A stretch of DNA of 56,512 nucleotides from Candidatus Hadarchaeota archaeon (GCA_964514965.1 CAZETV010000002.1:188545-245056); one strand, 5' to 3'. Positions 2,018 to 38,451 are shown, counted from the stretch's first letter. Notes: generated by a model not told the origin, from the letters alone. Program-made: numbers and translations.

Positions 2018-2024
2018 ATCACAT

Positions 2025-7265: not shown

Positions 7266-7266
7266 G

Positions 7267-20087: not shown

Positions 20088-20486
20088 TCACCTGTAGCTC
20101 TTCTGATATTTTGCGCGCGCGCCGGGCCCTCCCGGTTTTTTGGGCTCCTTGAAGCGCACATCGCTCTTTATCAAAGTCCAGTCGTGCTGCTTAAAAAGCT
20201 CACGTACTTCAGGGGCACCCGACCACTCGATGAGTCCTCTGGCGATAGCCGTGCGAACGGCATCAGCCTGCCCCATGAAACCCCCACCCTCGACGCTAAC
20301 CTCGATGTCAACGCGACGTGCGAGCTCGGGCACTAAAGCCAATGGCTCAAAAATCTTGCGTCGCGCGAGTTCCGGTTCGTAAACCTCGAGCGCGCAGCGG
20401 TTGACAAAAACTTGCCCTTTACCATCCCTAACTCTGGCCCTAGCAAGTGCAGCCTTACGTCTGCCAGTTGCGAGTACAACCTTCAT
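20088..20486 (-). CDS. rps9: 30S ribosomal protein S9.
   Basis: GRRKAALARARV ... KYQKSYR C-terminus. Confidence 0.9.
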   Translation of the reverse strand: MKVVLATGRRKAALARARVRDGKGQVFVNRCALEVYEPELARRKIFEPLALVPELARRVDIEVSVEGGGFMGQADAVRTAIARGLIEWSGAPEVRELFKQHDWTLIKSDVRFKEPKKPGGPGARAKYQKSYR

Positions 20487-20920
20487 CAGAATCTCGCTCC
20501 TAAGTGTTTGCTGAGGTTCTCAACTCTTATAAAACGTCGTGTGCCGAGCCGCTTAAGGCTGGCTTCAGGCAAATCTTGTATTTCCTTGCCGGCGAGCTCT
20601 TGTGGCACCCCGATGTAAACACGGAGGCGATGATAGGCCGACCGCCCTTTAGGTTTGTCGAAGGGCAGCATTCCTCTAATAGCCCGACGTACGAGTTCCT
20701 CAGGGCGCTTAAGATGGAAAGGCCCCTTGCGGGGGTTAGTAAGGTTTCGAACCTCAAGCCAAGCATCGTAAACGCCAAAGGTAGCTTCTTTTCTACCGGA
20801 AACTACGATCTTTTCGGAGTTCACCACAATCACATGTTCACCATCGAGCAGACGTTTCGCCACGAAGCTCGCGAGCCTCCCCAAGACCAAATCCTCTCCA
20901 TCAATTATCACGTTTCTCAC
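20486..20920 (-). CDS. rpl13: 50S ribosomal protein L13.
   Basis: IIDGEDLVLGRLASFVAKRLL...; synteny. Confidence 0.85.
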   Translation of the reverse strand: MRNVIIDGEDLVLGRLASFVAKRLLDGEHVIVVNSEKIVVSGRKEATFGVYDAWLEVRNLTNPRKGPFHLKRPEELVRRAIRGMLPFDKPKGRSAYHRLRVYIGVPQELAGKEIQDLPEASLKRLGTRRFIRVENLSKHLGARF

Positions 20921-21437: not shown

Positions 21438-23063
21438 TTAAGTTTTGATTCTTTTAGCGAGAGCTGCTTTGATAAAAGCGCTGAACACTGACGCTGGTCT
21501 AGCTGGTCTTGACTTGTACTCTGGATGAAATTGGGTGGCCAAGAAGAACGGATGCTTTGAGAGTTCTAGAATCTCCATGCGTCTCCTGTCGGGCGATTTT
21601 CCCGAGAAAACTAGCCCAGCTTTGCTTAACTTATCTATATAGCACGGATTAACTTCGTAGCGATGTCTGTGTCGCTCGGAAATTCGCTCGCTTCTGTAAA
21701 TCTTGAAAGCTTTCGTCCCCTTAGTGATACGCACTTCATGCGCTCCGAGCCTCATCGTTCCACCCATCTCTTTGACCTTCTTCTGTTCGGGGAGAAGATC
21801 GATTACGGGGTGAGAAGTTCTAGAATCTATCTCTGCGCTGGCGGCCCGCTTCAAACCCAAGACGTTTCTAGCGAATTCTACGACCGCAAGCTGGAAACCA
21901 AAGCATAAACCTAAGAAGGGTATCGAGTGTTTGCGCGAATAACCTATCGCAGCTATTTTTCCTTCAACCCCCCGCGAACCGAACCCGCCCGGCACAAGGA
22001 CGCCATTGTACGCGGTCAATGTTTCAAGTTTATCTTTGCATTCTTCGTACGTCTCAGCATCTATCCAATCTATCTCGACTCTACAATCGTGCCAACCTGC
22101 AGCGTGCTTAAGGGCTTCATTTATGCTTAAGTAAGTGTCCGCGAACTTGATGTATTTTCCAACCATCGCGATTTTCACAACTCTCTGCGCGCGCTCCATA
22201 CGGTCAACAATTTTTTTCCATCCCTCGAGATTCCTCTCCTTTAGCGGGAGATTTAGCCTTTCCAGTAACTTAGTGCATAGGCCCTCTTTCTCAAGCCAAA
22301 GAGGTACTCTATAAATATTTTCAACATCAGGAGCACTTACCACGGCACCTTCCGGGACGTTGCAGAATAGTGAGATCTTCCGCTTCGCCTCTTCATCGAG
22401 AGGTTTCTCCGCCCTGCAAACGATGACATCAGGTGTTATGCCGATTTCGAGAAGCTCCTTGACCGAGTGCTGGGTGGGTTTGGTCTTTTGTTCGCCCACC
22501 ACATTTAGCACTGGCACCAATGTGACATGAACGAAAATCACGTTAGTCTGTCCTTCCTCAAGCCTCAACTGCCGAACAGCCTCAAGGAAAGGCATACTCT
22601 CGATATCTCCCACCGTGCCCCCAATTTCAACCAAGCAAATGTCTGCTCCGCTTTTCTTCGCGACTTGCCGAATGCGATTTTTGATCACATCGGTGACGTG
22701 AGGGATTATCTGAACCGTACGACCCAAGTAGTCGCCTTTTCGCTCTTTCCTTATTACCTCGTCATAAATCTGCCCAGTTGTGATATTGTGATCTTTTGTC
22801 AGATTGATGTCTAGGAAACGTTCATAGTGCCCCATGTCCAAATCTATCTCGCCTCCATCCTCAGTCACGAAAATTTCACCGTGCTCAAAAGGGTTCATAG
22901 TCCCCGCGTCGACATTTAGATAAGGATCGATTTTGATTGCTGTGATTTCAAATTTGCACGATTGAAGTAGCTTTCCTATCGAGGCCGCGGTTATACCTTT
23001 CCCAAGACCGCTAATCACCCCGCCAGTAACGACGATATATTTCATCCGCTCACCTACGTACAT
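21438..23063 (-). CDS. pyrG: CTP synthase (glutamine-hydrolysing).
   Basis: [24 protein letters not shown]... plus C-terminal class I GATase (GLCFGFQ). Confidence 0.95.
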
Positions 23064-23151
23064 CCAATATTTTCCTTTACGCTTTTAAATCCATAAATAT
23101 CGAGGCAATGTTTGATGGTGCACCACACATTTTTTCTCCAACCACATAAAA

Positions 23152-24660
23152 TCACGAAGTTTCATATATCCTCCCGATTTCCCTCTCTCCCTTATCAAAT
23201 CTAGCTTTCATCTCATCTGCCAGTTTTTGTGCGAGCGCTGTTGGATACCGGCAGGTGAGACAGCCAAGGCAAAGTTCATTCCTCCCCAAACCCGTTGCTT
23301 TGACGAAATTTTCAAGCGATTGATAGTGCACCGAATCTGCCCCGATGATCTTCGCCACTCCGGCCGCATCATTATTCGCCCCAATCAGCTCGCCGAAAGT
23401 CGCCATGTCAATACCATAGAAGCACGGAGATATTATCCGCGGGAAGGTGATATACATGTGCACCTCTTTCGCCCCCGCCTCCCTAATCTTTTTAATCACC
23501 CTACGGCAGGTGTCGCCCCTCACGATAGAATCCTCGACTACTGCAACTCGTTTTCCCTTTATCTCGCGCCCCACATTCAATTTCTTAGTTATTATCGTCT
23601 CGCGCTCTTTGGACTTGACGATGAACGCACGATCCGTCACATAACGGTGCCTCCTCAGTGCCCGTTCCCAAGGGATTCCTGTTTGTTCGTGCAACCCATA
23701 AGTCGCGTCGTCACCGGTCTCTGGTATCGAAACTACGACTTCAGCTTTCTTCGCTATGTCTGGGTCTTCCTTCCCCAGATTCCTCCCGAAAGCTTCCCTA
23801 ATTTTGTACACGGGCTTAGTGCCGTTTAAAACTGAATCAGGTCTAGCAAAATATGCAAACTCAAAACTACAGAAAGCTCGCTTTTCACATTTAACAATCT
23901 GCTCTCGTTTAAAGCCTTCCTTAGACCAAGTCAGCAGTTCACCCGGTTTCACCTCGGACTCATACCGAAAATTATTGATTCTTAGACCAACGTTCTCCGA
24001 GGCCACCGCGAAAACCGCATTGTCCTCGCTGCACCCGTAACAGAGAGGTTTTATCCCCAAAGGATCCCTAAATGCGAAAAAATCTCCATCTTGATTCAAC
24101 CCAATGACGGAAAAAGACCCCTCCACTTCTCGCATACAATCAGATACGGCGGAGGCCAAATCGGAGCCATTCAACCCATGCATCAATTTTTTGGCGATCA
24201 GCTCCACATCCGATGAGGAGGATAGACCCCCAAACTCCGATTTGAACTCCGCCTTGAGCTGTGCGACATTGACGAGGTTACCATTATACGCGAGACCAAT
24301 CTTGGCTTTCGCATCACCCACGATGAATGGTTGGGCATCCCCCCAAAGCCGTTGTTTAGCGTCCCTGCCAGAGGTGACATACCTAACGTGTCCTATGCCA
24401 GTGCTCCCTCCAAGTTTCTTGAATAACCTCTGAATGAGAGGATGTCTTACGGGCGGCAAAAGACCCAGTCCGTGGTGCAGCCTAAACCCTTCGGCGGACG
24501 TGAGGAAACCGTAAGAATGATGCCCACGGTGGTTTTGGGATATCAACCCCCAATAGATATAAGGGATTACCGGTCTGCTATCGAAACTATAGGCTCCGAA
24601 GACTCCACAGGATTCTCCTAGCGAATCAGACATGGCAACAAAGTTAGAGCCAGGCGACAT
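23152..24660 (-). CDS. purF: Amidophosphoribosyltransferase.
   Basis: N-terminal CGVFG Ntn-GATase, PRTase motif VVEDSIVRGDT, C-terminal Fe-S cysteines. Confidence 0.9.
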   Translation of the reverse strand: MSPGSNFVAMSDSLGESCGVFGAYSFDSRPVIPYIYWGLISQNHRGHHSYGFLTSAEGFRLHHGLGLLPPVRHPLIQRLFKKLGGSTGIGHVRYVTSGRDAKQRLWGDAQPFIVGDAKAKIGLAYNGNLVNVAQLKAEFKSEFGGLSSSSDVELIAKKLMHGLNGSDLASAVSDCMREVEGSFSVIGLNQDGDFFAFRDPLGIKPLCYGCSEDNAVFAVASENVGLRINNFRYESEVKPGELLTWSKEGFKREQIVKCEKRAFCSFEFAYFARPDSVLNGTKPVYKIREAFGRNLGKEDPDIAKKAEVVVSIPETGDDATYGLHEQTGIPWERALRRHRYVTDRAFIVKSKERETIITKKLNVGREIKGKRVAVVEDSIVRGDTCRRVIKKIREAGAKEVHMYITFPRIISPCFYGIDMATFGELIGANNDAAGVAKIIGADSVHYQSLENFVKATGLGRNELCLGCLTCRYPTALAQKLADEMKARFDKGEREIGRIYETS

Positions 24661-24663
24661 TTG

Positions 24664-25788
24664 TCATCTCCTTTTATTTTTCAACATCTCAACGAAGCGG
24701 TCAAAAAGGTACTGATTATCCTGCGGTCCTGGGGAGCCTTCCGGATGATATTGCACGGAGAAAACAGGGAGTTCCTCGTGATCGATTCCTTCAACCGTGC
24801 CGTCGTTGCAGTTGATTTTTGTAACTTTGAATCCAGTACCTTGTAGGCTTTCCGCGTCAATCGCAAAACCGTGGTTCTGCGCGGTTATGTGAACTTTCCC
24901 AGTTTGAAGGTCCTTAACTGGCTGATTAGTCCCGCGATGTCCAAACTTGAGTTTAAAAGTCTTCGTTCCAGCAGCCAAAGCCAAAATTTGATTACCCAAA
25001 CATATACCCATAATCGGATATTTTTCCATTAGTTGCCCAACGGTCTTGTGGAGGTGGGTCAAAACCGCTGGGTCACCCGGGCCATTTGATATCACGATGC
25101 CATCTGGCTCCAATGCCTCAATTTGGCTCACGTCCATCGTTGCGGGAACAGCGATTACTGAGAGTCCTCTTTTGACTAGACTTCTGAGGATACTTCTTTT
25201 AACTCCGCAGTCGATGAGCACGATTTTTAACTTACCCCCATTGCCAAATCTGTTTATTTCCTTCCGAGTTGTTTCCCCAACCAAGTCCTGCTCTGAAATG
25301 TCTGGATGCTTCCTAACCTTTTCAAGCAACTCTTCGACATGGGGCTCTTTACCTTCATAAGTAACCATGCCGCATTTCATCGTGCCATATTTTCTAACCT
25401 TGATCGTTAACGCGCGAGTATCCACGCTCATGATGCCAGGAATCTTGAATTCCTCCAAGAACTCTTCGAGCTTTTTTGTTCCCTTCCAATGAGATGGCTC
25501 CTCGCAGAGTTCCCTGAGTACCAATCCCTTAACCCAAATTCTATCTGACTCGAACCAATCGGGATGCACTTTGTAGTTCCCAATCAACGGATAGGTAAAC
25601 ATCAGGATTTGCCCATTGTAAGAAGGGTCCGTCAAAGACTCAACGTAGCCTGTCATCGATGTGTTGAAAACGATTTCACCAAGCGCTTCCCTTTTAGCTC
25701 CTAATCCCGCTCCCCTGAATACTGTTCCATCTTCGAGCACTAGCATCGCTTTAATGTTCTCGCTCAGATTTGAGTGGTGGGATTTCAA
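24664..25788 (-). CDS. carA: Carbamoyl-phosphate synthase small (glutaminase) subunit.
   Basis: LVLEDGTVFRGAGLGA... GICLGNQILALAAG...HGFA. No carB adjacent. Confidence 0.9.
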   Translation of the reverse strand: MKSHHSNLSENIKAMLVLEDGTVFRGAGLGAKREALGEIVFNTSMTGYVESLTDPSYNGQILMFTYPLIGNYKVHPDWFESDRIWVKGLVLRELCEEPSHWKGTKKLEEFLEEFKIPGIMSVDTRALTIKVRKYGTMKCGMVTYEGKEPHVEELLEKVRKHPDISEQDLVGETTRKEINRFGNGGKLKIVLIDCGVKRSILRSLVKRGLSVIAVPATMDVSQIEALEPDGIVISNGPGDPAVLTHLHKTVGQLMEKYPIMGICLGNQILALAAGTKTFKLKFGHRGTNQPVKDLQTGKVHITAQNHGFAIDAESLQGTGFKVTKINCNDGTVEGIDHEELPVFSVQYHPEGSPGPQDNQYLFDRFVEMLKNKRR

Positions 25789-26771
25789 ATTTTTTTCAAC
25801 TCCTTAACAGAGATGAGGCAGTGCGGTGCAAATGTTTCGATCTTGGCTCCGCGTTCTTTCATGATGACAGCGGGTATCAACCCACCAACCATAGAAATTC
25901 CAACTCTGTCCATGCTTACTGGAATACCCAGAATGGCTTCATTGGGCTTACCAAAGGCTAAGATTCCACCCCATCCTTTATCTTTTAGGTTTGAAATCAC
26001 TCGTTGCGTAGCATCCCCCGCAGTCATTGGAAGCTCTCTTAAACCAGCGGTTAACATCCCAGAACCGGTCTTGAGGACGCTATCTATTGAAGTCATGCCC
26101 CTGTAAACGAACACCTCCAGAGGCGGTATTGTTGTTCCATTGTAGGAAATCAGCTCCACGAAGCGGATGGGTTTGTATTTCAAAAATTGAACCAGACCTC
26201 CATAAGTAGGGATTATCGGAATACCTGAGTGCATAAGGACGCCATCTATTGTAAGATTGCAAACGGTAAAAATAGCTATTTGCCCTTTTGGAACGGATAT
26301 TTCGCCATGTTCTTCTCCTTCATCCAACACTTTGATGTAAGGAGCCAACAGGAGATCCTTTTCGTGGAGGGAATCCAAGACCTTGAGAACCCGATCGTGA
26401 AGGGCCTTGTCCACGAAGGAAACATTAGCGACCACCTTTCCTTTATCACTCCTAGGTTCGTAAGTCACAGTATACGCTAAAGATAGGAAACGCGTGGTAA
26501 CGAAGCCCACTCTTTCATAAGCTAACGCCCTGCCAAGCTCTTTTAGTCCCTCCTGAGTTATCGTTCTCCCACTCCGATCATGCCCATGAATGAGACCTCT
26601 AGCTTGTAATAATTGAAGGTGATATCTTATCGCCCTCTCGCTGAGCAGAAAACCTCTTCTCCTCAGTTCTCGGCTAAGCATCGTAGAGCCTAAGGGTTTA
26701 TCATGCCCGCTCAAAGCCTTTAAAATCTCAATCTCCTTCCTGTTGCTCTCGTTCTGCCCAGAATCAAGCAT
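25785..26771 (-). CDS. nrpR: NrpR-like nitrogen regulatory repressor (wHTH plus one NRD/DUF128 domain).
   Basis: ILKALSGHDKPLGSTMLSRELRRRGFLLSERAIRYHLQLLQARGLI... Paralogue of 38452..39453. Heads the nrpR-carA-purF-pyrG string, divergent from glnA. Confidence 0.65.
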   Translation of the reverse strand: MLDSGQNESNRKEIEILKALSGHDKPLGSTMLSRELRRRGFLLSERAIRYHLQLLQARGLIHGHDRSGRTITQEGLKELGRALAYERVGFVTTRFLSLAYTVTYEPRSDKGKVVANVSFVDKALHDRVLKVLDSLHEKDLLLAPYIKVLDEGEEHGEISVPKGQIAIFTVCNLTIDGVLMHSGIPIIPTYGGLVQFLKYKPIRFVELISYNGTTIPPLEVFVYRGMTSIDSVLKTGSGMLTAGLRELPMTAGDATQRVISNLKDKGWGGILAFGKPNEAILGIPVSMDRVGISMVGGLIPAVIMKERGAKIETFAPHCLISVKELKKI

Positions 26772-26807
26772 GCCCTACCCGAAAATCACTACAACCTCTA
26801 CCCTTAA

Positions 26808-26827
26808 ATAGGTAAACGGCTACCTAT
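26808..26827. promoter_or_regulatory. Perfect inverted repeat ATAGGTA-N6-TACCTAT in the 71-bp divergent nrpR/glnA intergenic region. Candidate operator.
   Basis: ataggtaaacggctacctat, 16 nt upstream of the glnA ATG. Confidence 0.45.
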
Positions 26828-26842
26828 TACCGAGGATAGACC

Positions 26843-28171
26843 ATGGTAAGCCACACTAAAGAAGATGTCTTAAAGGTTGTAACTGAGAATGATGTCAGGT
26901 TCATAAGGCTTTGGTTTACCGATATCTTGGGGCAACTGAAGAGTTTTTCCATTACATCAGGGGAATTAGAGACAGCTTTTACCGAAGGGATGGGATTTGA
27001 TGGTTCGTCCATAAAAGGTTTTGCACGAATCGATGAGAGCGATATGATCGCCAAACCGGACCCCACAACCTTTACTATTCTTCCTTGGAGACCAAAAGAA
27101 AAAGCTGTTGCGAGGATGTTTTGTGACATTCTGGAACCGGACGGGAGACCCCACGAAGGTGACCCTCGCTATATATTGAAGCGAAATTTGGAGCGATTGA
27201 AGGAAAAAAATTATACTTTTTACGTCGGGCCTGAAGTAGAGTATTTTTACTTTAAAGATGCAGAGCATCCAGACGTTTTAGACAAGGGCGGGTACTTTGA
27301 CCTCACTACCTTAGATGCAGCGAGCGACTTACGAAGAGACACGATTTTGACATTGGAAGCAATGGGAGTAAAGGCTGAATATAGCCATCACGAAGTCGCG
27401 CCTTCTCAACATGAGATAGACCTGTACTATATGGACGCACTTACCATGGCCGATAACGTAATGACTTACAAGGTAGTGGTGAAGGAGATTGCACACAAAT
27501 ACGGCTACTATGCTACCTTCATGCCCAAGCCGATCTTCGGGGAAAATGGAAGTGGGATGCATACTCACCAATCTTTGTTCAAAGGAGACAAAAACGTCTT
27601 CTTTGATGCAAGTGATGAATATCACCTATCCCCAATTGCTAAAGGATACATCGCTGGATTGCTAAAACATGCCCCGGAAATCACCGCCATTACTAACCAA
27701 TGGGTCAATTCTTACAAGAGGCTGGTCCCCGGCTATGAGGCGCCAGTTTATCTAAGTTGGGCTCGTCGGAATAGGTCCACGTTAGTAAGAGTGCCCATGT
27801 ACAAACCAGGGAAGGAGAAGGCCACACGAATTGAATTCCGTAGTCCAGATCCAGCTTGCAATCCTTATTTGGCATTTGCTGTTATGCTAGCAGCTGGACT
27901 CGAGGGAATTGAGAAAGGATATTCGCTTCCGGGTCCAATCGAAAAAGATGTTTACCACCTCAGCGAAAAAGAAAGAAAAAAACTGGGCGTAGAAACACTT
28001 CCGGGAAGCTTGGTTGAGGCTATAGAATTAGCGGAAAAAAGCGAGCTGATGCACAAGACCTTAGGGGCCCATATTTTCAACAATTTTATCGAGAGCAAAA
28101 AGGTTGAGTGGGACAATTATAGAAAACAAATCCACCCTTGGGAAGTGAAAGAGTACCTCCCTATCCTGTAG
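26843..28171 (+). CDS. glnA: Glutamine synthetase (type I-alpha).
   Basis: VRFIRLWFTDILGQLKSF..., GPEVEYFYF, NGSGMHTHQSLF, KPGKEKATRIEFRSPD. Confidence 0.95.
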   Translation: MVSHTKEDVLKVVTENDVRFIRLWFTDILGQLKSFSITSGELETAFTEGMGFDGSSIKGFARIDESDMIAKPDPTTFTILPWRPKEKAVARMFCDILEPDGRPHEGDPRYILKRNLERLKEKNYTFYVGPEVEYFYFKDAEHPDVLDKGGYFDLTTLDAASDLRRDTILTLEAMGVKAEYSHHEVAPSQHEIDLYYMDALTMADNVMTYKVVVKEIAHKYGYYATFMPKPIFGENGSGMHTHQSLFKGDKNVFFDASDEYHLSPIAKGYIAGLLKHAPEITAITNQWVNSYKRLVPGYEAPVYLSWARRNRSTLVRVPMYKPGKEKATRIEFRSPDPACNPYLAFAVMLAAGLEGIEKGYSLPGPIEKDVYHLSEKERKKLGVETLPGSLVEAIELAEKSELMHKTLGAHIFNNFIESKKVEWDNYRKQIHPWEVKEYLPIL

Positions 28172-28218
28172 GAATCTGGGGTTTGAAAAGATGAAATCCT
28201 CGGGAAAAAGGTGGAAAA

Positions 28219-29301
28219 ATGAATCGCTATCTGGAAAAAGAAAGAAGTGGCTGTTCCCTTGTGGGGATAATGAACGAACAGGGAAAGAGATTTAGCGGCA
28301 AATTAGTGATAAAATCTATCGCCGTGATGCGCGAACGGGCAAATGGTTTGGGCGCGGGGTTCGCCGGTTATGGTATATACCCCAAATACAGCGATTTTTA
28401 CGCCTTCCATTTGCTGTATGATAACGATAAAGCCAAAGATTTAACTGAGGAATACTTAGAAAAAAATTATCTAATCCAGAAAGACGAAGCCATTCCGTCT
28501 AGGGAAGTAGAGGCAATAAAAAATTCACCCTGTATCTGGCGATATTTTCTAAAGATAAAAGAAGAGAGAAAAGAAGAACGTTGCGACCTTGCTGAAGAAG
28601 ATTTCATTGTCAAAACAGTGATGGACATAAACACCGGCATTGACGGGGCATTTGTATTCTCAAGTGGGAAAAACATGGGCATCTTTAAAGGCGTAGGTTT
28701 TCCTGAAGACATCGGCGCCTTTTACAGGTTGGAGGATTATAAAGGCTACAACTGGATTGCCCACGGGAGATTTCCAACAAACACGGGCGCATGGTGGGGG
28801 GGAGCTCATCCTTTAGGGCTTTTAGATTGGTCTGTGGTCCATAACGGAGAGATTTCATCTTACGGGACAAACAGAAGGTTTTTGCTCAACTACGGATATC
28901 ACTGTGCCCTTTTTACTGACACAGAGGTAATGACATACCTCTTCGACCTGCTGGCGAGAAAACACAAACTAGATTTTGGGGTGATATCAAAAATTCTCGC
29001 CGCCCCATTTTGGGATGAGATAGATAGAGCCCAGAACGGCGAATCTACGTTGGTTAAGGCCCTGCGCATGACTTATAGCAGCGCTCTGGTTAACGGCCCG
29101 TTCTCGGTTATAGTGGGGCGCAACAGGGAATTGGTGGGCCTAAACGATCGCATCAAGTTAAGGCCGTTAGTAGCTGGAAGAAAAGATGATATGCTCTATA
29201 TGTCTAGCGAAGAGTCCGGCATTAGGGAAGTATGTCCTTCGCCTGACAGAGTCTGGGCGCCGAAAGCGGGAGAGCCGGTAATCGGACGGTTGAGGGGGTA
29301 A
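28219..29301 (+). CDS. Archaeal glutamate synthase, glutamine amidotransferase domain protein (GltB domain 1).
   Basis: Class II GATase (Ntn) with the catalytic Cys near the N-terminus ([19 protein letters not shown]). Precedes the FMN domain gene. Confidence 0.7.
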
Positions 29302-29303
29302 AA

Positions 29304-30824
29304 ATGCCTATCACTTTCATTCCACCCGAATTCATTATCGAAAGAGACGATGAAAAATGTATCACTTGCCAAGTTTGTTGTAGGCAGTGTGCAAACGATG
29401 CTCATACCTACGATGCTGAAGACGACAAAGTTTACACCGATAATTCTAAATGTGTGGGATGCCATCGCTGCGTGACACTTTGCCCAACCGGTGCACTAAA
29501 TGTCATACGCAATCCTCTGCACTTTAAAGATAATCCCAACTGGACGCCTCGTGCGATAAAAGACATCTATAAGCAGGCCGAGTCTGGCGGGGTGCTGTTG
29601 ACTGGGATGGGCTGTGACCGACCCTACTTTGATTACTTTAGCCATATTGTACTCAACGCGTCACAAGTGACTAACCCATCAATCGACCCCCTCCGGGAGC
29701 CGATGGAACTACGTACCTACATCGGGAAAAAACCAGACAAAGTCGAAATAGAGGGTACTAGCGAGAGGGCCCGACTAAAGACCAAGATACTCCCGCAGCT
29801 GGAGTTGAGTACTCCAATCCTCTTCTCGGCGATGTCGTTCGGCTCGATAAGTTACAATGCTCATTTGTCTTTGGCTAAGGCAGCCCAAGAGTTCGGGATT
29901 TTTTATAACACTGGAGAGGGCGGATTACACCCGGACCTGTACAAATACGGTAAACACACGATAGTCCAAGTCGCCTCGGGTCGGTTCGGTGTACATCGGG
30001 ACTACTTGGAGGTAGCTGCCGCGATAGAGATAAAAATCGGCCAGGGTGCAAAACCGGGAATAGGCGGACATCTCCCGGGAGAGAAAGTAAGCGAACAAAT
30101 AAGTCGAACCAGGATGATTCCAGAAGGAACGGATGCCCTTTCCCCAGCCCCGCATCACGACATTTATTCGATAGAGGACCTGCGACAACTCATTTATGCG
30201 TTAAAAGAGGCAACGAGCTACACGAAACCAGTGGGGGTAAAGATTGCCGCCGTGCATAACGTGGCCCCCATCGCGAGCGGCATAGTTCGTGCGGGTGCTG
30301 ATTTTGTAGCCATTGACGGGATTCGTGGTGGCACTGGTGCCGCCCCTACAGTAATCCGAGACAACGTGGGGATACCGATAGAACTCGCTGCTGCTGTAGT
30401 TGACAGCCGTCTTAGGGAGGAGGGGATTAGACATCGAGCTTCGCTTATAGTTGGTGGCGGTATAAGATCCAGCGCGGATGTCGTAAAGGCTATTGCGTTA
30501 GGCGCAGATGCTGTCTATATCGGGACCGCCTCATTGGTAGCAATGGGTTGCCGCGTTTGCCAAAAATGTTATACTGGAAAATGCAACTGGGGTATCGCTA
30601 CTCAAGACCCCTATTTGACCAAAAGATTGAATCCTGAGATTGGCGCCCGAAGATTGCTAAACTTACTCCGTGCGTGGTCATTGGAAATCAAGGATATGCT
30701 CGGCGGCATGGGCATCAACGCAATTGAAAGCCTGCGGGGGAATAGAGATCAATTAAGAGGCGTTGGACTTACGGATGTGGATTTGAAAATGCTGGGGATA
30801 AAGCCAGCTGGAGAGGCGTGGTAA
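29304..30824 (+). CDS. Glutamate synthase FMN-binding (synthase) domain protein with N-terminal 2x[4Fe-4S] ferredoxin.
   Basis: CITCQVCCRQCAN / CVGCHRCVTLCP. FMN/Fe-S region FYNTGEGGLHPD, GQGAKPGIGGHLPGEKV, GGTGAAP. Confidence 0.85.
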   Translation: MPITFIPPEFIIERDDEKCITCQVCCRQCANDAHTYDAEDDKVYTDNSKCVGCHRCVTLCPTGALNVIRNPLHFKDNPNWTPRAIKDIYKQAESGGVLLTGMGCDRPYFDYFSHIVLNASQVTNPSIDPLREPMELRTYIGKKPDKVEIEGTSERARLKTKILPQLELSTPILFSAMSFGSISYNAHLSLAKAAQEFGIFYNTGEGGLHPDLYKYGKHTIVQVASGRFGVHRDYLEVAAAIEIKIGQGAKPGIGGHLPGEKVSEQISRTRMIPEGTDALSPAPHHDIYSIEDLRQLIYALKEATSYTKPVGVKIAAVHNVAPIASGIVRAGADFVAIDGIRGGTGAAPTVIRDNVGIPIELAAAVVDSRLREEGIRHRASLIVGGGIRSSADVVKAIALGADAVYIGTASLVAMGCRVCQKCYTGKCNWGIATQDPYLTKRLNPEIGARRLLNLLRAWSLEIKDMLGGMGINAIESLRGNRDQLRGVGLTDVDLKMLGIKPAGEAW

Positions 30825-30836
30825 GCGGGGATAGAA

Positions 30837-31271
30837 ATGAAACGGATCTACATAAAAGAAGATGTTTGCATTGGATGCCGGCTTTGTGAGATTTATTGTC
30901 TGGTTCAACATTCGAAGTCAAAAAAGATAATCAAAGCCTACAAAGGGGAGTATCCCAAAGCCATCCCTAGGATTTTGGTGGAAGAGAAAGGGCACGTGTC
31001 CTTTGCCCTTCAATGCCGTCACTGTGAGGATGCCCCATGCATTGACGCTTGCATAACAGGAGCAATGTACCGGGATAAAAAGACGGGAGCCATCCTCTGT
31101 GACGAAAAGAAGTGCGTCGGCTGTTGGATGTGCATCATGGTATGCCCGTTCGGGGTTATAATGAGGGATGTGGAAGGCAAGAAAGTCGCCTCCAAATGCG
31201 ACTTGTGTTGCGGGGAGGAAATCCCTGTTTGCGTGGCGAATTGTCCTAATGAAGCGCTGGAATTCAGGTGA
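30837..31271 (+). CDS. 4Fe-4S dicluster ferredoxin-domain protein.
   Basis: CIGCRLCEIYC, CRHCEDAPCIDAC, CVGCWMCIMVCP, CDLCCGEEIPVCVANCP. Confidence 0.8.
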   Translation: MKRIYIKEDVCIGCRLCEIYCLVQHSKSKKIIKAYKGEYPKAIPRILVEEKGHVSFALQCRHCEDAPCIDACITGAMYRDKKTGAILCDEKKCVGCWMCIMVCPFGVIMRDVEGKKVASKCDLCCGEEIPVCVANCPNEALEFR

Positions 31272-31276
31272 AATGA

Positions 31277-32554
31277 ATGACCCACTACGTGATTATCGGA
31301 AACTCGGTAGCCTCCATAGCTGCGGTTGAGGCGATTCGCAATCAGGACAAAGATGGTGCAATAACCATCATCTCCGATGAACCTCACCACGCTTACTCGC
31401 GGCCGCTTATTTCGTACCTACTCGCTGGCAAGGTTTCAGAAGAATCGATGTTATATCGAGATAGAAACTTTTACAAAAAGAATAAGGTCGAGGTTCTCTT
31501 GGGCAAGAAAGCCATCGCCTTAAACCCGAAGAAGAAGTTGATTACTCTCGCTGACAAAAAGAAAATCCATTTCGACAAGCTATTGATTGCAACCGGGGGA
31601 ACTCCGATTCTCCCAAAAGTTAAAGGCAAAAATCTAGACGGTGTCTTCACTTTCACCAAATGGGACGATGCCAAGAAGATTAAGGAGTACATCAACAAAA
31701 ACAAGGTAAAAAAAGTAATCGTAGTAGGAGGCGGGCTAATAGGACTAAAAACTGTCGAAGGCTTGATTGGGCTTAAAGTAAAGGTGAGTATTGTCGAACT
31801 TGCCGACAGGATATTAAGTGCCACTTTCGATAAGAAAGCTTCCAATCTCATAAAGACTTGTTTGAATAAAATGGGTTGTAACGTAATCACCAAAAATACC
31901 GTGACTAAAATCAGGGGCAAAAAGAAAGTAACCAGCGTGATTTTAAAGGATGGATTGAAACTCGATTGCGGCATGGTCATCTTCGCTATCGGCGTTGCTC
32001 CAAACGTAGAGATCGCCAAAGGTACAGATATCGAAATAAATAAGGGTATCCTTGTCGACAACCACATGCAAACTAATATCCCGGACATCTACGCAGCAGG
32101 CGATGTTGTTGAAGGGCTTGATTTTATTACAGGATTAACTCGCCCTATAGCCATTTGGCCAAACGCTTACAAACAAGGCAACATTGCTGGATCCAACATG
32201 GCCGGGGTGCCTAAAGAATACACGGGTAGTTTTGTTATGAACTCGGTTGAACTTTGCAACATACCAACCATTTCGGTGGGATTAACCGACCCCAAAGAGG
32301 ACGGATACGAGGTGCTCGATTATTACGACGAGGAAAATTTAGTATACAGGAAAGTTGTGCTGAAAGGAAACCGGATAGTCGGCGCCATATTTATCAAGAA
32401 TATCGATAGAGCGGGAATTTATACAGGTCTCATCATAGAAAAGGTAGATGTTTCGAGCTTTAGAAATCACCTTCTAGAAGAAGATTTTGGTCTGCTATCT
32501 CTACCCAAAGAGTACAGGAAACACTTAGTTTATGGACCGGGGGTTGAGGTATGA
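31277..32554 (+). CDS. FAD/NAD(P)-dependent pyridine nucleotide-disulfide-family oxidoreductase (probable electron-input subunit of GOGAT).
   Basis: HYVIIGNSVASIAAVEA (FAD Rossmann), VVGGGLIGLK (NAD Rossmann), AAGDVVEG. Confidence 0.75.
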   Translation: MTHYVIIGNSVASIAAVEAIRNQDKDGAITIISDEPHHAYSRPLISYLLAGKVSEESMLYRDRNFYKKNKVEVLLGKKAIALNPKKKLITLADKKKIHFDKLLIATGGTPILPKVKGKNLDGVFTFTKWDDAKKIKEYINKNKVKKVIVVGGGLIGLKTVEGLIGLKVKVSIVELADRILSATFDKKASNLIKTCLNKMGCNVITKNTVTKIRGKKKVTSVILKDGLKLDCGMVIFAIGVAPNVEIAKGTDIEINKGILVDNHMQTNIPDIYAAGDVVEGLDFITGLTRPIAIWPNAYKQGNIAGSNMAGVPKEYTGSFVMNSVELCNIPTISVGLTDPKEDGYEVLDYYDEENLVYRKVVLKGNRIVGAIFIKNIDRAGIYTGLIIEKVDVSSFRNHLLEEDFGLLSLPKEYRKHLVYGPGVEV

Positions 32555-33282
32555 GGATAGATGCGAAGGGGGTTTATTATAAGGATTTAAATGAGCAAAT
32601 CCGCCAAGCCGTCGCTAAAGGGGAAAAGGAAATCATTCTAGACAACATTAACGGACAAAGGTATATCGGTGCTGGGCTAAAGGGTGATATAGATATCAAA
32701 ATTTTTGGGGTTCCGGGAAACGATCTCGCCGCTTTCATGGACGGCCCAACTATAACAGTGTTTGCAAATGGACAAGATGGGGTGGGAAATACGATGAATT
32801 CTGGTAAAATCGTGATTCGCGGAGATGCCGGAGATATATTGGGGTATTCCATGCGCGGGGGGAAGATCTTTGTCAAAGGTGATGTTGGTTACCGCGTGGG
32901 CATACACATGAAGTCTTACAAAGAGGCATATCCTGTTGTGATTGTTGGGGGGCGTGCACAAGATTTCCTTGGAGAGTATATGGCAGGGGGATTACTAGTC
33001 GTTTTAGGACTAGAGAAAGGGGAATCACGGATGACTGGGAACTATGTGGGGACAGGTATGCATGGCGGGGTGATGTACATCCGGGGGAAATTGGAGGATT
33101 ACCAACTTGGGAAAGAAGTGGAGATACTCAAACCCAATGAACAAGACATTAAAATGTTAGATTGTTATTTAGAAGAATACTGTCACGATTTTAATTTAGA
33201 TTTAAATGAGATTTCAAACGAAGAGTTCGTGAAATTAGTACCTCACTCCTACCGCCCCTATGGGAGGATATACGCTTATTGA
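32551..33282 (+). CDS. Glutamate synthase GXGXG (alpha-subunit C-terminal) domain protein.
   Basis: GAGLKGDIDIKIFGVPGNDLAAFMDGPTITVFANGQDGVGNTMNSGKIVIRGDAGD... repeated GXGXG beta-helix. Confidence 0.8.
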   Translation: MRIDAKGVYYKDLNEQIRQAVAKGEKEIILDNINGQRYIGAGLKGDIDIKIFGVPGNDLAAFMDGPTITVFANGQDGVGNTMNSGKIVIRGDAGDILGYSMRGGKIFVKGDVGYRVGIHMKSYKEAYPVVIVGGRAQDFLGEYMAGGLLVVLGLEKGESRMTGNYVGTGMHGGVMYIRGKLEDYQLGKEVEILKPNEQDIKMLDCYLEEYCHDFNLDLNEISNEEFVKLVPHSYRPYGRIYAY

Positions 33283-33310
33283 ATATCTGGTGTTTTCGTT
33301 GAAATCTATT

Positions 33311-34780
33311 ATGAAAATCAAGGATTTCAAAAAGCTAGCAGACCAATTAGATAGACCGTGCATAATACCTCTTATTCACACGGTCGAAGGGTGCGGCGAT
33401 CCAGCTAAAATTTATAATAACCTAAGACGCATACACAACCCATCTTACCTCCTCGAGTCTGCAGAAGGACCTGGTGGGTCAGCTCGCTATTCTATTATAG
33501 GCTGTAACCCACTGCTTCACATCTCCGTGCGCAATGGTACACTCAAGGCTTCAGGTAGAGCAGATGTAGTTAACCTTTCTCAAAAATATGCACGAAAAGT
33601 CGCCAAAGCTGATGCCTTGGACAAGATGAAGGAAGCAATGTTTTTAAAAATTATGGGGCAAGCAACTGAAAGTGTGCCACGCTTTGTGCTCGGGGTGGTT
33701 GGATATGTGGGTTATGATTTAGTGAGATCTATGACCAACATTGGAGCACACGCTCTCGATGACCGTAACCACCCAGATGTTGAGTTCATGCTTGCAGAAG
33801 GGTCCATCACTTTTGACCATCTTAAGCATCAAACTCACTATTGTTCTCTGACTCTATTTACCGAGGAAATCGATGTAGACAGCTACTATGAAAAAGCATT
33901 GTCGAACATCAAAAAACTCAAGGCCATAAAACCAATATCGGCCGAGCCCCAACGGCAAAAAATCGTGACGCGGTCAAATATCTCGAAATCAAAATTTGAG
34001 CATGATGTCAAGGTGGCAAAGCGATACATCCGGGCAGGAGACATAATCCAAGTCGTGCTTTCGAGACGTATCGAGCTGAAGCCCGCGCCCCCGCTCGACC
34101 AGTTTTACATGAATCTCCGAAAAATCAATCCTTCCCCTTACATGTTTTTCCTTGATTTTCCGAATCGTTCTCTGATTGGATCAAGCCCGGAAATCTTGGT
34201 GAAAGTCGATGGCAAAAAAGTATTAACTAGGCCCATCGCCGGCACACGACGTCGGGGCAATAACAAAATCGAGGATATCTCTCTCGAGCGTGACCTCCTC
34301 GGAGACGAGAAGGAGCGAGCCGAACACATCATGCTTGTCGATTTAGGAAGGAACGACATCGGCCGCATCTCAGAGTATGGCGCCGTTAAGGTAACTGATT
34401 TCATGGAGGTCGAAAAGTACAGTCATGTCCAGCACATAGTTTCGAATGTTGTTGGGCGAATGAGACCAGAGAAAGACGCTTTTGATGCATTACGTGCGAC
34501 TTTCCCTGCCGGCACGGTGACGGGAGCGCCGAAAGTTAGGGCAATGGAGATAATTGATGAACTCGAACCCACGCGACGAGGCATCTATGCTGGAGCAGTC
34601 GGATCCTTCAGCTATAGCGGTCATGCTGACCTCGCGATAACCATCAGGACCATGGTGGCAGAGCGAGGCAGAGGTTATATCCAAGTAGGCGCTGGCATCG
34701 TTGCAGATTCTATACCGTGGAAAGAACACTACGAAACTGAAAACAAAGCACAGGCGCTTTTGCGTGCGGCGGGTGTTTAA
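33311..34780 (+). CDS. trpE: Anthranilate synthase component I.
   Basis: LESAEGPGGSARYSIIG, chorismate-binding C-terminus GAVGSFSYSGHADLAITIRT. The track ORF starts 17 codons upstream. Confidence 0.9.
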   Translation: MKIKDFKKLADQLDRPCIIPLIHTVEGCGDPAKIYNNLRRIHNPSYLLESAEGPGGSARYSIIGCNPLLHISVRNGTLKASGRADVVNLSQKYARKVAKADALDKMKEAMFLKIMGQATESVPRFVLGVVGYVGYDLVRSMTNIGAHALDDRNHPDVEFMLAEGSITFDHLKHQTHYCSLTLFTEEIDVDSYYEKALSNIKKLKAIKPISAEPQRQKIVTRSNISKSKFEHDVKVAKRYIRAGDIIQVVLSRRIELKPAPPLDQFYMNLRKINPSPYMFFLDFPNRSLIGSSPEILVKVDGKKVLTRPIAGTRRRGNNKIEDISLERDLLGDEKERAEHIMLVDLGRNDIGRISEYGAVKVTDFMEVEKYSHVQHIVSNVVGRMRPEKDAFDALRATFPAGTVTGAPKVRAMEIIDELEPTRRGIYAGAVGSFSYSGHADLAITIRTMVAERGRGYIQVGAGIVADSIPWKEHYETENKAQALLRAAGV

Positions 34781-35350
34781 GTGCGCGTTACGGTGATTGA
34801 CAACATTGATTCATTCGTCTATAACCTTGTGCAATACATCGGGGAGCTAGGAGCGGAACTCCGAGTTTTCACGAACGATGTATCACTCCGTAAGATCATC
34901 GATGAAAATCCAGATAAAATTGTCATTTCTCCAGGCCCCAAGACTCCCGAAGTTGCTGGCGTATCAATCGATGTGATTAAGGAATTTAGCGGCAAAGTCC
35001 CGATTCTTGGGGTATGCCTTGGTCACCAAGCGATTGGCTATGCATTTGGAGCAAATATCGTCCCAGCAAAACGATTGATGCACGGCAAAACTTGTTTTAT
35101 TGAGCACGATGGTAGTGAACTCTTTAAAGGAGTGCCGAATCCATTTGAGGCAACACGCTATCATTCTCTAGCGGTCGACCGTGCAACGTTACCGTCCTGC
35201 TTACGCATAACGGCTGAAACTTCCGATGAGCATCACGAAATAATGGGAATAAAACACGCGGAACATCCAACTTTTGGGGTACAATTTCACCCGGAGTCGA
35301 TACTGACCACACATGGGAAGCTCATGATAAAAAATTTCATCAAGCTATGA
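34781..35350 (+). CDS. trpG: Anthranilate synthase component II (GATase).
   Basis: VIDNIDSFVYNL, GVCLGHQAIG, HPES triad. GTG start abutting the trpE stop. Confidence 0.9.
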   Translation: MRVTVIDNIDSFVYNLVQYIGELGAELRVFTNDVSLRKIIDENPDKIVISPGPKTPEVAGVSIDVIKEFSGKVPILGVCLGHQAIGYAFGANIVPAKRLMHGKTCFIEHDGSELFKGVPNPFEATRYHSLAVDRATLPSCLRITAETSDEHHEIMGIKHAEHPTFGVQFHPESILTTHGKLMIKNFIKL

Positions 35351-35403
35351 GATGTATAGTAATGCAAAAAACTCGAACGGAAAATAAGTGGTAGTGTGTT
35401 CAG

Positions 35404-36177
35404 ATGTTAACGAAACGAATCATCCCCTGCCTCGATATGCGCTGGGGGCGTGTTGTCAAGGGTGTCAAGTTCAAGCAACTACGTGATGCGGGCGATCCAG
35501 CTGAGCTAGCACATTGGTATGACGAACAAGGCGCCGATGAGGTGGTGTTCTTGGATATCGGAGCATCACCAGAGGGGAGGGAAACTATGTTTGAAGTGGT
35601 CAAGCACACAGCCAAACAACTATTTATCCCACTAACAGTTGGCGGCGGCATTAATTCGCTCGATCATATCAACCGCATGCTCAAGTCAGGGGCGGACAAG
35701 GTGGCGATAAATACTGCTGCAGTTGAGAGCCCTGAACTGGTACGTGAGTCGGCGGAGAAGTTTGGGAGCCAGTGCATCGTCATCGCTATAGACGCCAAGA
35801 GTATCGGAGAGCGAAAGTGGGAGGTTTACACTTATGGCGGCCGCAAGCCAACCGGCGTGGATGTATTGGAATGGGCCAGACAAGTCGAGTCATTAGGAGC
35901 AGGCGAAATTCTGCTTACGAGCATGGACGCCGATGGCACGAAAGCCGGTTATGATTTAGAACTCACCAAAACTGTAGCTAACGCGGTTAACATACCAATC
36001 ATCGCTTCGGGCGGCGCTGGCAATCCTCAACACATTTGCGAGGTTCTTACGACTACTGGAGCAGACGCTGCTTTAGCCGCTGGCATTTTTCATTTCGGCG
36101 CTTATTCTATCGGCGACGTTAAAAGTTACTTGCGCGAACAAGGCGTTCCTGTGAGGTTGTGGGTGAGGCAAAAATGA
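35404..36177 (+). CDS. hisF: Imidazole glycerol-phosphate synthase cyclase subunit.
   Basis: [32 protein letters not shown]. Confidence 0.95.
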
Positions 36178-36779
36178 CCCGAATAGCAATCGTTGACTAT
36201 GGTGTCGGCAATCTGCATAGCATCCGGCGTGGCCTCGACCTAGCTGGTGCTCAAACCAAAATCACAAATGAACCCGATGAAATCGCTGCAGCTGATGCCA
36301 TCGTGCTCCCAGGAGTCGGGGCATTCAAGAGTGCAATGCAGGAGCTTGGGGCTAATCTCGATATCATCAAACAAGCTACTTCTGCAGGCAAGCCTTTATT
36401 GGGTATTTGTTTGGGCATGCAACTATTGCTGGCTCGGAGTGAGGAAGGCGGCAACACAGAGGGCTTAGGACTCATTCCCGGCAAGGTGGTCAAGCTACCG
36501 CGTACTCAAAAGGTGCCGCATATGGGCTGGAATTCTTTAGAAGTTAAACGCGAACACCCATTCTTGGTGGACGTTCAATCTGGCGCCCAAATTTACTTTG
36601 TGCATTCCTATCTCGTGCAGCCTGAAGACGAAAAATCTGTTATCGCGACTAGCACTTACGGTATCGAATTCCCCGCTATTGTGGCACAGGGCACAGTGAT
36701 TGGGACACAGTTTCACCCAGAAAAAAGCGGAAGGGTCGGATTACAAATGCTTAAAAATTTTGTTATGATGGTAGAATAA
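36174..36779 (+). CDS. hisH: Imidazole glycerol-phosphate synthase glutaminase subunit.
   Basis: [33 protein letters not shown] overlap with hisF. Confidence 0.9.
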
Positions 36780-36803
36780 AGGGCAGCCACCCAAAATGAG
36801 GAT

Positions 36804-38354
36804 ATGTTTATGAAAACCGATGCAATCATTGTAGTTGATTTTGGCGGGCAATATTGTCACCTGATAGGAAGAAGGGTTAGGGAGTACAAAGTTTACTCCG
36901 AAGTAGTGCCATATGATGTAACCCCCGAAGAAATCAAAGCACTCAACAAAAAGTTCAATGTTAAGGGGATAATCCTATCTGGCGGACCGTCTAGCATTCA
37001 CGAAGAAAACGCTCCTAAATGTAGTCGAGAAATTTTAGAATTGAACATTCCAATCTTAGGTTTATGTTACGGACACCAGCTCATCGCTCATTTTTCTGGG
37101 GGGGAAGTAAAAAGAGCGGACAAGAGGGAGTATGGAATAACAATTGTTATAATCGATAAGCCAATTGGAGTCCTAAAGGGATTAGATGATAAAGAAAAAG
37201 TCTGGATGAGCCACGGTGATACTGTTTACACGCTTTCACAAGAATACGATATCCTCGCACACACTGAAAATTGTCCTGTAGCTGCATTCAAGCATAAGGA
37301 GGAGCCCATTTACGGTCTACAGTGGCATCCCGAAGTTATCCATACTGAGAAAGGAGGAAAAATGCTAGAAAATTTCATCTTCGAAATCTGCAAATGCCAA
37401 GCGAATTGGAAGATGGAAGATTTCGTGAAAAAATCCATCCAAGAAATAAAACAGGTAACAGGTAATAAAAAAGCTATAATCGCTTTAAGCGGGGGTATCG
37501 ACTCTAGCACGGCTACAGTATTGGCCGCAAAAGCCATGGGGAAGAACTTAACTGCAGTCTTCGTTGATCACGGATTCATGAGGGAGGGGGAACCTGAATT
37601 TATCAAAGATACATTTGAAAAATTTGATTTCAACTTCATTGCGGTGGATGCACGGGAAAGGTTCCTGCGAAGATTAAAAGGGATAATAGACCCCGAGCGG
37701 AAAAGGAAGATAATTGGAGAAGAATTCATCAAGGTTTTCGAGGAAGTCGCAAGAGAAGTTGGAGCGGAGTACCTTTTGCAAGGAACGATTTATCCGGATA
37801 GAATCGAATCAGGTTTTAGGAAGTATTCCGACAAAATAAAAACCCACCATAACGTTGCGGGCTTACCAACCAAAATTGAATTTCTTGGAGTAGTCGAACC
37901 GTTAAGGAACCTGTATAAAGATGAAGTAAGGAAGGTTGCAAAAAAGTTGAGATTACCAAACGAAATTATCTGGAGACAACCCTTTCCCGGCCCAGGTTTA
38001 TCCGTGAGAATAATTAATGAGGTAACTCCTGAGAAAATCGAAATAATTAAAAAAGCTGACAAAATAGCGACCGAGGAGATAGAGGAAAGCGGATTGAAAG
38101 AGGATTTATGGCAATATTTCGCTGTTTTGACTGACACCAAAAGTACCGGGGTGAAAGGCGATTCAAGAGCGTATGGTTACACGGTCGCTATCAGAGCCGT
38201 TAAAAGTAAAGAAGCTATGACCGCTAACTTTGCAAAAATCCCTTATGATGTGTTGGAGCGGATTTCTACGAAAATAACAAATGAGATACCAGAAGTTACA
38301 AGAGTTGTATATGATGTCACCCACAAACCACCGGCAACAATTGAATGGGAGTGA
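36804..38354 (+). CDS. guaA: GMP synthase (glutamine-hydrolysing), fused GATase plus ATP-PPase.
   Basis: IIVVDFGGQY, GLCYGHQL, PP-loop SGGIDSS, C-terminal dimerisation KPPATIEWE. Confidence 0.95.
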   Translation: MFMKTDAIIVVDFGGQYCHLIGRRVREYKVYSEVVPYDVTPEEIKALNKKFNVKGIILSGGPSSIHEENAPKCSREILELNIPILGLCYGHQLIAHFSGGEVKRADKREYGITIVIIDKPIGVLKGLDDKEKVWMSHGDTVYTLSQEYDILAHTENCPVAAFKHKEEPIYGLQWHPEVIHTEKGGKMLENFIFEICKCQANWKMEDFVKKSIQEIKQVTGNKKAIIALSGGIDSSTATVLAAKAMGKNLTAVFVDHGFMREGEPEFIKDTFEKFDFNFIAVDARERFLRRLKGIIDPERKRKIIGEEFIKVFEEVAREVGAEYLLQGTIYPDRIESGFRKYSDKIKTHHNVAGLPTKIEFLGVVEPLRNLYKDEVRKVAKKLRLPNEIIWRQPFPGPGLSVRIINEVTPEKIEIIKKADKIATEEIEESGLKEDLWQYFAVLTDTKSTGVKGDSRAYGYTVAIRAVKSKEAMTANFAKIPYDVLERISTKITNEIPEVTRVVYDVTHKPPATIEWE

Positions 38355-38451
38355 CAAATTGAACTTTTAGCCACGAAGCTGAAGATTCAATATGGGAAAA
38401 TTAAATGAGGTCAATGTTACATATGTTTAAACAATTTTTGGGGGAGAACAC

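Follow-up and report, generated by a model that had tools for sequence, protein, structure and literature searches.

What is a perfect inverted repeat doing in the short spacer between a glutamine synthetase gene and a divergent gene for a nitrogen repressor, in an archaeon that is probably a Hadarchaeon? The spacer between nrpR and glnA measures 71 bp (26772-26842) and lies in a stretch of 56,512 nucleotides that was analysed whole and is called the window below. To our knowledge, NrpR and its operators have been studied experimentally in methanogens only, and a literature search returned no paper tying NrpR to the Hadarchaeota or to the Thermoproteota lineages considered here. The initial annotation had offered the repeat as a candidate operator for the NrpR-like repressor. 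This is the best-supported reading, given the match to known operators, the conservation of the site and its recurrence at nitrogen genes, and judging from sequence comparison we put the probability that an NrpR-family nitrogen repressor uses the repeat as its operator at roughly three in four. The elements and genes concerned are these:

26807-26828, no strand assigned: dyad 1, the proposed NrpR operator, an 8-6-8 repeat with core GGTA-N6-TACC
26804-26810, no strand assigned: TATA-like TTAAATA, overlapping the left half-site (sequence reading)
26815-26834, no strand assigned: possible second dyad, offset by 7 bp and overlapping dyad 1, AACGG-N10-CCGAG, weak here
26832-26835, plus strand: Shine-Dalgarno-like GAGG, 7 nt ahead of the glnA ATG (sequence reading)
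26843-28171, plus strand: glnA, for a type I glutamine synthetase, proposed target of the regulation (Pfam Gln-synt_N and Gln-synt_C)
25785-26771, minus strand: nrpR-a, 328 aa, divergent from glnA (HTH_12 and a single NRD1_2, E 2e-77)
38452-39453, plus strand: nrpR-b, a second paralogue, 333 aa (Pfam HTH_12 and NRD1_2)
28219-38354, plus strand: ten tightly packed co-directional genes past glnA (Pfam, L001 annotation)
21438-25788, minus strand: carA, purF and pyrG, downstream of nrpR-a (Pfam, L001 annotation)

The repeat and its setting

The sequence first picked out, ATAGGTA-AACGGC-TACCTAT at 26808-26827, is present with no mismatch. It was described as having 7-bp arms, and these are indeed perfect, but the true arms are 8 bp long with the same 6-nt spacer, so that the full perfect repeat is AATAGGTA-AACGGC-TACCTATT (26807-26828, arms 26807-26814 and 26821-26828), within the sequence cccTTAAATAGGTAAACGGCTACCTATTAccGAGGatagaccATG (window 26801-26845). 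It was rightly placed close to the glnA ATG at 26843, from which the 7-6-7 repeat is separated by 15 nt and the end of the 8-6-8 repeat by 14 nt, and about 35 nt from the divergent start, the actual interval being 36 nt (nrpR start codon 26771-26769, minus strand).

The window contains three distinct perfect inverted repeats whose arms measure 8 bp or more and whose spacers measure 3-9 nt, where Markov-1 simulations predict about six. The chance of finding such a repeat inside the 71-bp spacer is about 0.002 for arms of at least 8 bp and about 0.007 for arms of at least 7 bp, while AGGTA-N6-TACCT, one mismatch being allowed, is found four times in the window where 0.77 would be expected. As palindromes of this size are not rare in the window, the significance of the repeat comes instead from its position, its identity to a known operator and its conservation.

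Two other occurrences of the core were considered as operators and set aside. The AGGTA-N6-TACCT at 28925-28940 sits within the GATase_2 gene (gltB N-domain) and is probably constrained by coding. It forms part of a perfect 7-6-7 repeat with the same core, AGAGGTA-ATGACA-TACCTCT (28923-28942), which encodes a conserved 11-residue peptide; the closest orthologues (81-92% identity), those of L165, L166 and L167, retain the DNA core, which is gone in more distant ones. Because the core is confined to these three orthologues, coding constraint is the likely cause of the repeat, rather than an intragenic site. A third GGTA-N6-TACC, at 1925, lies within an ORF, has non-palindromic flanks and is probably due to chance.

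The window has two further perfect inverted repeats. One, CGGAAAGAATTACTTCTTTCCG at 42756-42777, has 9-bp arms, is preceded by an A-rich run and lies in an apparently non-coding stretch; the other is CGTACGGGTTGATCCCGTACG at 49560-49580.

The gene calls on either side of the spacer, nrpR-like and glnA, are both borne out by their Pfam domains. The glnA product also matches the NCBIfam model TIGR00653 (GlnA) at 557 bits, and the NRD domain of NrpR-a matches Methanocaldococcus jannaschii MJ0159, an NrpR-like structure (PDB 3NEK), at E 3.5e-29. The nrpR-a gene heads an nrpR-carA-purF(-pyrG) run, with its stop overlapping the carA start, and the order nrpR-a-carA-purF-pyrG is shared with L082. The window thus encodes two NrpR paralogues with winged helix and NRD, NrpR-b being 39% identical to NrpR-a (BLASTP). 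In L167 and L168 the gene just 5' of glnA, across the operator, encodes an orthologue of NrpR-b (77-82% identity), and NrpR-b could be an alternative or partner binder of the operator; a matrix scan of the window gave no operator-like box in the region upstream of nrpR-b itself.

The ten genes past glnA encode a split GOGAT (GATase_2, Glu_synthase, Fer4, Pyr_redox_2, GXGXG), trpE/G-like products, hisF/H and guaA. The gaps between them run from an overlap up to 53 nt, and the matrix scan found no other operator-like site between 28219 and 38354; these genes may possibly form one operon driven from the regulated promoter. The carA, purF and pyrG genes, whose products consume glutamine, are possibly under the same divergent promoter.

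Taken as a whole, 21438-39453 is a "glutamine island" in which nearly all genes make or consume glutamine. Its minus strand carries pyrG, purF, carA and nrpR-a, and its plus strand glnA, five split-GOGAT genes, the trpE/G-like genes, hisF/H, guaA and nrpR-b, so that the plus-strand run is flanked by an NrpR gene at either end.

The functional unit had been taken to be the 7-6-7 repeat; the conserved block is larger, at about 30 bp, with a TATA-like element fused to the left half-site and an extra CCTAT-like half-site 7 nt downstream. The TTAAATA of the window lies at the midpoint of the spacer, 32 nt from either start codon, and is a good candidate for an archaeal TATA box, possibly shared or bidirectional. 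An A/T-rich stretch (TTAAA, TTATA, TAAAA or ATATA) immediately precedes TAGG in most of the 11 sites that we aligned. Archaeal TATA boxes lie at a usual spacing from the transcription start, which places the predicted glnA start at about 26830-26836, at the GAGG; given that start, the repeat would span roughly -26 to -5. The extra half-site belongs to a possible second dyad, which in relatives reads AAAGG-N10-CCTAT, the AAAGG in the spacer of the first dyad and the second CCTAT 7 nt past the first both being conserved. In the window this dyad is degenerate, with symmetry left only in CGG...CCG, and its standing as a real element is possible.

Published operators and the site in other archaea

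The initial annotation held that the geometry of two half-sites with an N6 spacer agreed with NrpR operators, whereas the half-site sequence differed. The geometry agrees with both published forms. The half-site does differ from that of Methanococcus, GGAAN6TTCC, but the GGTA-AACGGC-TACC inside the 8-6-8 repeat is a GGnA-N6-TnCC inverted repeat whose core is identical to GGTA-N6-TACC of Methanosarcina mazei.

The NrpR of Methanococcus maripaludis, according to Lie and Leigh, reportedly carries two NRD domains. It binds GGAAN6TTCC ahead of nif, glnK-amtB and glnA (PMC2723118), so that the operators of that organism likewise include a 6-bp-spaced inverted repeat in the glnA promoter served by a repressor with an NRD sensor. 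The window site differs from this operator by one base per half-site, while the exact GGAA-N6-TTCC core is found at the homologous position in the relative L168. The nitrogen operators of M. maripaludis sit just past the transcription start (PMC5512572), whereas the window site overlaps the TATA-like element. The glnK1 operon of M. maripaludis has overlapping NrpR binding sites according to the title of Lie et al. (2010, Mol Microbiol 75:755; title in PMC3462420), that is, several half-site pairs in one promoter, as in the 7-bp-offset dyads of the relatives described here; the comparison extends to the title and not to the geometry, and the second dyad of the window is degenerate. For M. mazei, a single sentence of the source gives the NrpRI operator as GGTA-N6-TACC and terms it "potential" (PMC3177094), and the NrpR regulon of that organism includes glnA1 (PMC11456600). 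The 4+6+4 core is identical to that of the window, and the regulators share an architecture of a winged helix and a single NRD domain. The conserved half-site is longer here (ATAGGnA), however, the T/A base that defines the M. mazei operator is not conserved among relatives of the window, and the host here is a probable Hadarchaeon and non-methanogen. In Methanothermobacter, NrpR is predicted to bind an inverted repeat at glnA (MTH1569/MTH1570; PMC3087415), and there, too, nrpR adjoins glnA.

The site is conserved in close relatives. The closest homologue of NrpR-a is in L082 (92%), and among GlnA homologues whose promoter is in view, those of L167 (89%), L168 (89%) and L170 (86%) come closest. 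Five sites in these four relatives (two of them in L167) keep the block TTAAATAGGnAAAGGTTnCCTATTnCCTAT, which precedes either glnA or a RAM-domain gene followed by nrpR/glnA, the downstream gene of L082 being partial. In the direction of the downstream gene, the blocks read:

Window: TTAAATAGGTAAACGGCTACCTATTACCGAG
L082: TTATATAGGTAAAAGGTTACCTATTGCCTAT
L167, 5' of glnA: TTAAATAGGAAAAAGGTTGCCTATTACCTAT
L167, 5' of RAM-nrpR: TTAAATAGGAAAAAGGTTACCTATTTCCTAG
L168: TAAAATAGGAAAAAGGTTTCCTATTGCCTAT
L170: CTTAATAGGCAAAAGGTTTCCTATTTCCTAT

Across these six promoters, 22 of the 26 positions from 26808 to 26833 are invariant and ATAGG...CCTATT is the same in 6/6, while the flanks have diverged so far as to be unalignable (MAFFT, long flanks). 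At the same place L168 has the perfect repeat AATAGGAA-AAAGGT-TTCCTATT, with the core GGAAN6TTCC, and in the glnA direction the spacer of L082 is AAAGGT against AACGGC in the window. The third base of GG[T/A]A is the least conserved position, so the base that separates the "Methanosarcina" from the "Methanococcus" consensus varies freely among close relatives.

In L165, L166 and L169 (87-94% glnA identity), glnA follows another gene and its promoter is out of view. The preceding ORF (1-140 in L165 and L166, 1-186 in L169) appears gltD-like by eye (...AQSINRYLL...), and its stop overlaps the glnA start, glnA lying inside a longer operon in these three loci.

The motif is specific in its spacing. 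Close relatives, over 50 kb, contain five exact copies of ATAGG-N10-CCTAT and none with a spacer of 7-9 or 11-13. The form TAGGNA-N6-TNCCTA has seven exact matches in archaeal loci totalling 939 kb together with the window, where other spacers give 0-2, and none in mostly bacterial glnA loci totalling 608 kb. Each of the seven is intergenic; six are located 5' of glnA, of a RAM-domain gene followed by nrpR/glnA, or of a gltS-type glutamate-synthase gene, and the seventh (L082) is between nrpR and a partial ORF. With a weight matrix built from ten other sites, the window site being left out, the window site scores 37.2 bits, compared with a maximum of 9.0 in 20 simulated windows. Recurrence upstream of nitrogen genes, as anticipated, thus holds in the relatives (at glnA, at split GOGAT or glutamate-synthase genes and at the RAM-domain/nrpR operon) but not within the 56.5-kb window, where the site is unique, nothing else scoring above 8 bits besides its own opposite strand.

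Elsewhere the scans were negative. No match of 10 bits or more was found in eight Hadarchaeal control loci (about 129 kb). Upstream of nrpR, a survey of 73-78 loci, most of them from Bathyarchaeia (Thermoproteota), gave the motif at background only, and GGnA-N6-TnCC, the minimal core, showed no enrichment in mostly Bathyarchaeial loci either (5 against about 5.7 expected). The box tracks glnA and glutamate-synthase promoters, not nrpR as such. Most of the comparison loci were fetched by NrpR homology, so that adjacency to nrpR is partly built in. A scan of 80 metagenomic glnA loci (66-80% GlnA identity) gave no motif above background, but it is uninformative, as GlnA matches at that identity are largely bacterial.

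More distant lineages have the box at related genes. The Wolframiiraptor locus L043 carries two sites (TAGGTA-N6-TTCCGA) between divergent glnA and gltB-N, one of them, TTTTATATATAGGTAACCATATTCCGATTCAGGATG, with a TATA box fused to the left half-site. In the Thermoproteota single-cell genome AM-311-L02 (L046), AATAGG-N10-CCTATT lies 20 nt 5' of a Fer4/Pyr_redox_2/GATase_2 GOGAT cluster, and in the Hecatellales locus L052 the box is 42 nt 5' of the glutamate-synthase gene (gltS), between two nrpR genes. The Bathyarchaeia L013, L004 and L002 have a variant, ATCGGCA-N6-TGCCGAT, beside gltS. In L013 (at about 5847), L002 (about 5882) and L083 (about 1391) this variant separates nrpR from a divergently oriented gene of the glutamate-synthase type; in L004 (about 731) it is located 5' of a gene of that type, and in L019 (about 2692) 5' of nrpR. 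The CGG/CCG in place of AGG/CCT may be a lineage-specific shift in operator specificity.

One palindrome from the same comparison, AGGGATTTAAATCCCT, was rejected as an NrpR box: it precedes an HTH_3 gene and is unrelated. It is perfect and conserved in four Bathyarchaeia loci (L008 at about 377, L009 at about 323, L032 at about 253 and L037 at about 280), ahead of a gene of about 130-165 aa in which HTH_3 (XRE-type) was confirmed in L008 and L009, and it is probably the HTH_3 regulator's own operator.

Proposed action and competing explanations

The site is flanked by genes for an NrpR (HTH_12 and NRD) and for glutamine synthetase, and glnA is well established as being under NrpR control in M. 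maripaludis (PMC2723118) and in M. mazei (PMC11456600). NrpR-a, NrpR-b or both in complex could be the binder, and a dimer of either paralogue or a mixed assembly would set its winged helices on ATAGGTA and TACCTAT when 2-oxoglutarate is low, that is, when nitrogen is sufficient. Because the repeat shares bases with the TATA-like element at its left half-site and stops only a few bases short of the predicted start, a bound repressor would block initiation: TBP, TFB and RNA polymerase could not assemble on the glnA promoter, and glnA would be silenced, as probably would the co-directional GOGAT and amidotransferase genes that follow. Under nitrogen scarcity 2-oxoglutarate, the presumed effector, would bind the NRD domain, release the repressor and so permit transcription. 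The shortness of the spacer and the central position of the TATA-like element suggest that the same site probably also affects the nrpR-a, carA, purF operon. Autoregulation of nrpR-a looks plausible here, in contrast to methanogens, in which nrpR is not nitrogen-regulated (PMC9765008).

A more ambitious version of the operator is doubtful in our estimation. It would make the block a composite, TATA-fused operator of up to four interdigitated half-sites, found in Hadarchaeota and several Thermoproteota (Bathyarchaeia, Hecatellales, Wolframiiraptor), with one bidirectional TATA-centred copy controlling both arms of the glutamine island (glnA, GOGAT, trpE/G, hisF/H and guaA on one side; nrpR-a, carA, purF and pyrG on the other) and with the NrpR paralogues acting as heteromers. 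If true, the NrpR regulon would reach glutamine-consuming biosynthesis and NrpR would be autoregulated, unlike the methanogen models.

It is improbable that the conserved block is bound by some other factor, such as an Lrp/AsnC protein acting with a RAM-domain protein, and that its adjacency to nrpR is a coincidence. The idea draws on L167 and L170, where the block lies directly 5' of a stand-alone AsnC_trans_reg (RAM) gene, and on the full-length AsnC-type regulator encoded beside a second glnA in L167. However, no AsnC or RAM gene is near the window site, we know of no DNA-binding domain in RAM-only proteins, and the core fits two published NrpR operator consensus sequences. Moreover, nrpR is at most 200 nt from the site in the window, L082, L084, L168 and L052 and within about 5 kb of it in L043 and L046, and in L167 it directly precedes the site at glnA and is the second gene past the other site.

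We give similarly little credence to the block being a mere conserved core promoter, a TATA box with a proximal element in which the dyad is fortuitous and no repressor takes part. Palindromes of this size do occur near the chance rate in the window, the TATA-like element is part of the block, and close relatives may share a promoter by descent or duplication, the two L167 copies having sequence upstream of the block in common as well. A purely promoter function would not explain why the dyad, its inner spacing always 10 bp, recurs in distant phyla at unrelated promoters (L043, L046, L052) whose flanks and downstream genes differ, nor why it is specific to one spacing; and half-sites containing G and C match known repressor sites and are atypical of archaeal proximal promoter elements.

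An RNA hairpin in the glnA 5' leader, acting on translation or mRNA stability, is very unlikely: the region folds at -13.4 kcal/mol (z = -2.4 against shuffles) and the hairpin would stop 4 nt short of the Shine-Dalgarno-like GAGG, but the fusion of left arm and TATA-like element seen in most sites puts the predicted start past the repeat and would leave the left arm untranscribed, the arms are conserved without compensatory changes, their sole variable position breaks pairing in 8/11 sites, the distance from site to start codon ranges from 6 to 95 nt, a terminator scan gave no terminator-like site, and a structured cis-regulatory RNA such as a glutamine riboswitch finds no counterpart in Rfam (best 11-16 bits against gathering scores of 35-56) and no stem-supporting covariation in the 11 sites. 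The asymmetry of that variable arm base is more easily reconciled with a protein-binding site in which one position is unspecified than with an RNA stem.

The NrpR-type glnA operator is most likely, then, an ordinary and known switch, what is new being the little-studied host lineage, the Hadarchaeota; the current view of NrpR action is unchanged by these results. The same repressor-operator logic, GGnA-N6-TnCC at glnA, is indicated in uncultured non-methanogenic subsurface archaea, namely the Hadarchaeota and several Thermoproteota, and the extended motif ATAGGnA-N6-TnCCTAT (with its CGG variant in Bathyarchaeia) is usable for predicting nitrogen regulons in metagenome-assembled genomes.

Host lineage and neighbouring loci

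Among named matches to ribosomal protein L13 of the window (20486-20920) there are only Hadarchaeota, at 66-87% identity: Hadesarchaea at 87%, Hadarchaeaceae at 85% and Hadarchaeum at 67-68%. Hadarchaeal genomes retrieved by way of L13 also share synteny with the window and with L167, the closest long glnA contig (aroE-tyrA-pheA-nadE ... L18e-L13-S9-RpoN-RuBisCO). From L13 identity and synteny, the host is probably a Hadarchaeon, of the kingdom Methanobacteriati. Named homologues of NrpR-a reach 68% identity at most and come without exception from Bathyarchaeia and other Thermoproteota. By themselves they would suggest a Bathyarchaeon as host, a reading rejected on the strength of L13 and the synteny. 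Either nrpR-a has moved between subsurface archaeal lineages or Hadarchaeal NrpR-a lacks names in the databases. GlnA of the window is 79-82% identical to bacterial GlnA of Nitrospirota and Thermodesulfovibrionia, and this bacterial-like GlnA in a Hadarchaeon may reflect an inter-domain transfer of glnA.

The small stand-alone RAM (AsnC_trans_reg) gene directly downstream of the block, at 8353-8613 in L167 and 184-429 in L170, precedes nrpR-b in the former and glnA in the latter; none is near the window site. Such a stand-alone RAM protein could be an amino-acid-sensing partner in nitrogen control. In addition, at 6037-7891 L167 has a second glnA, a paralogue of 430 aa, transcribed divergently from the gene of a full-length regulator of the AsnC/Lrp type. 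The spacer between these two genes is AT-rich and has no NrpR-type box, which suggests that the two glutamine synthetases of L167 are under separate regulation.

At 1067-3320 on the minus strand, the window encodes a 431-aa homologue of the RuBisCO large subunit, and after it comes a conserved ORF of 316 aa without a Pfam domain. This pair follows L18e-L13-S9-RpoN in the Hadarchaeal metagenome-assembled genomes L171-L178; in the window it is about 17 kb away from those genes, which points to a rearrangement.
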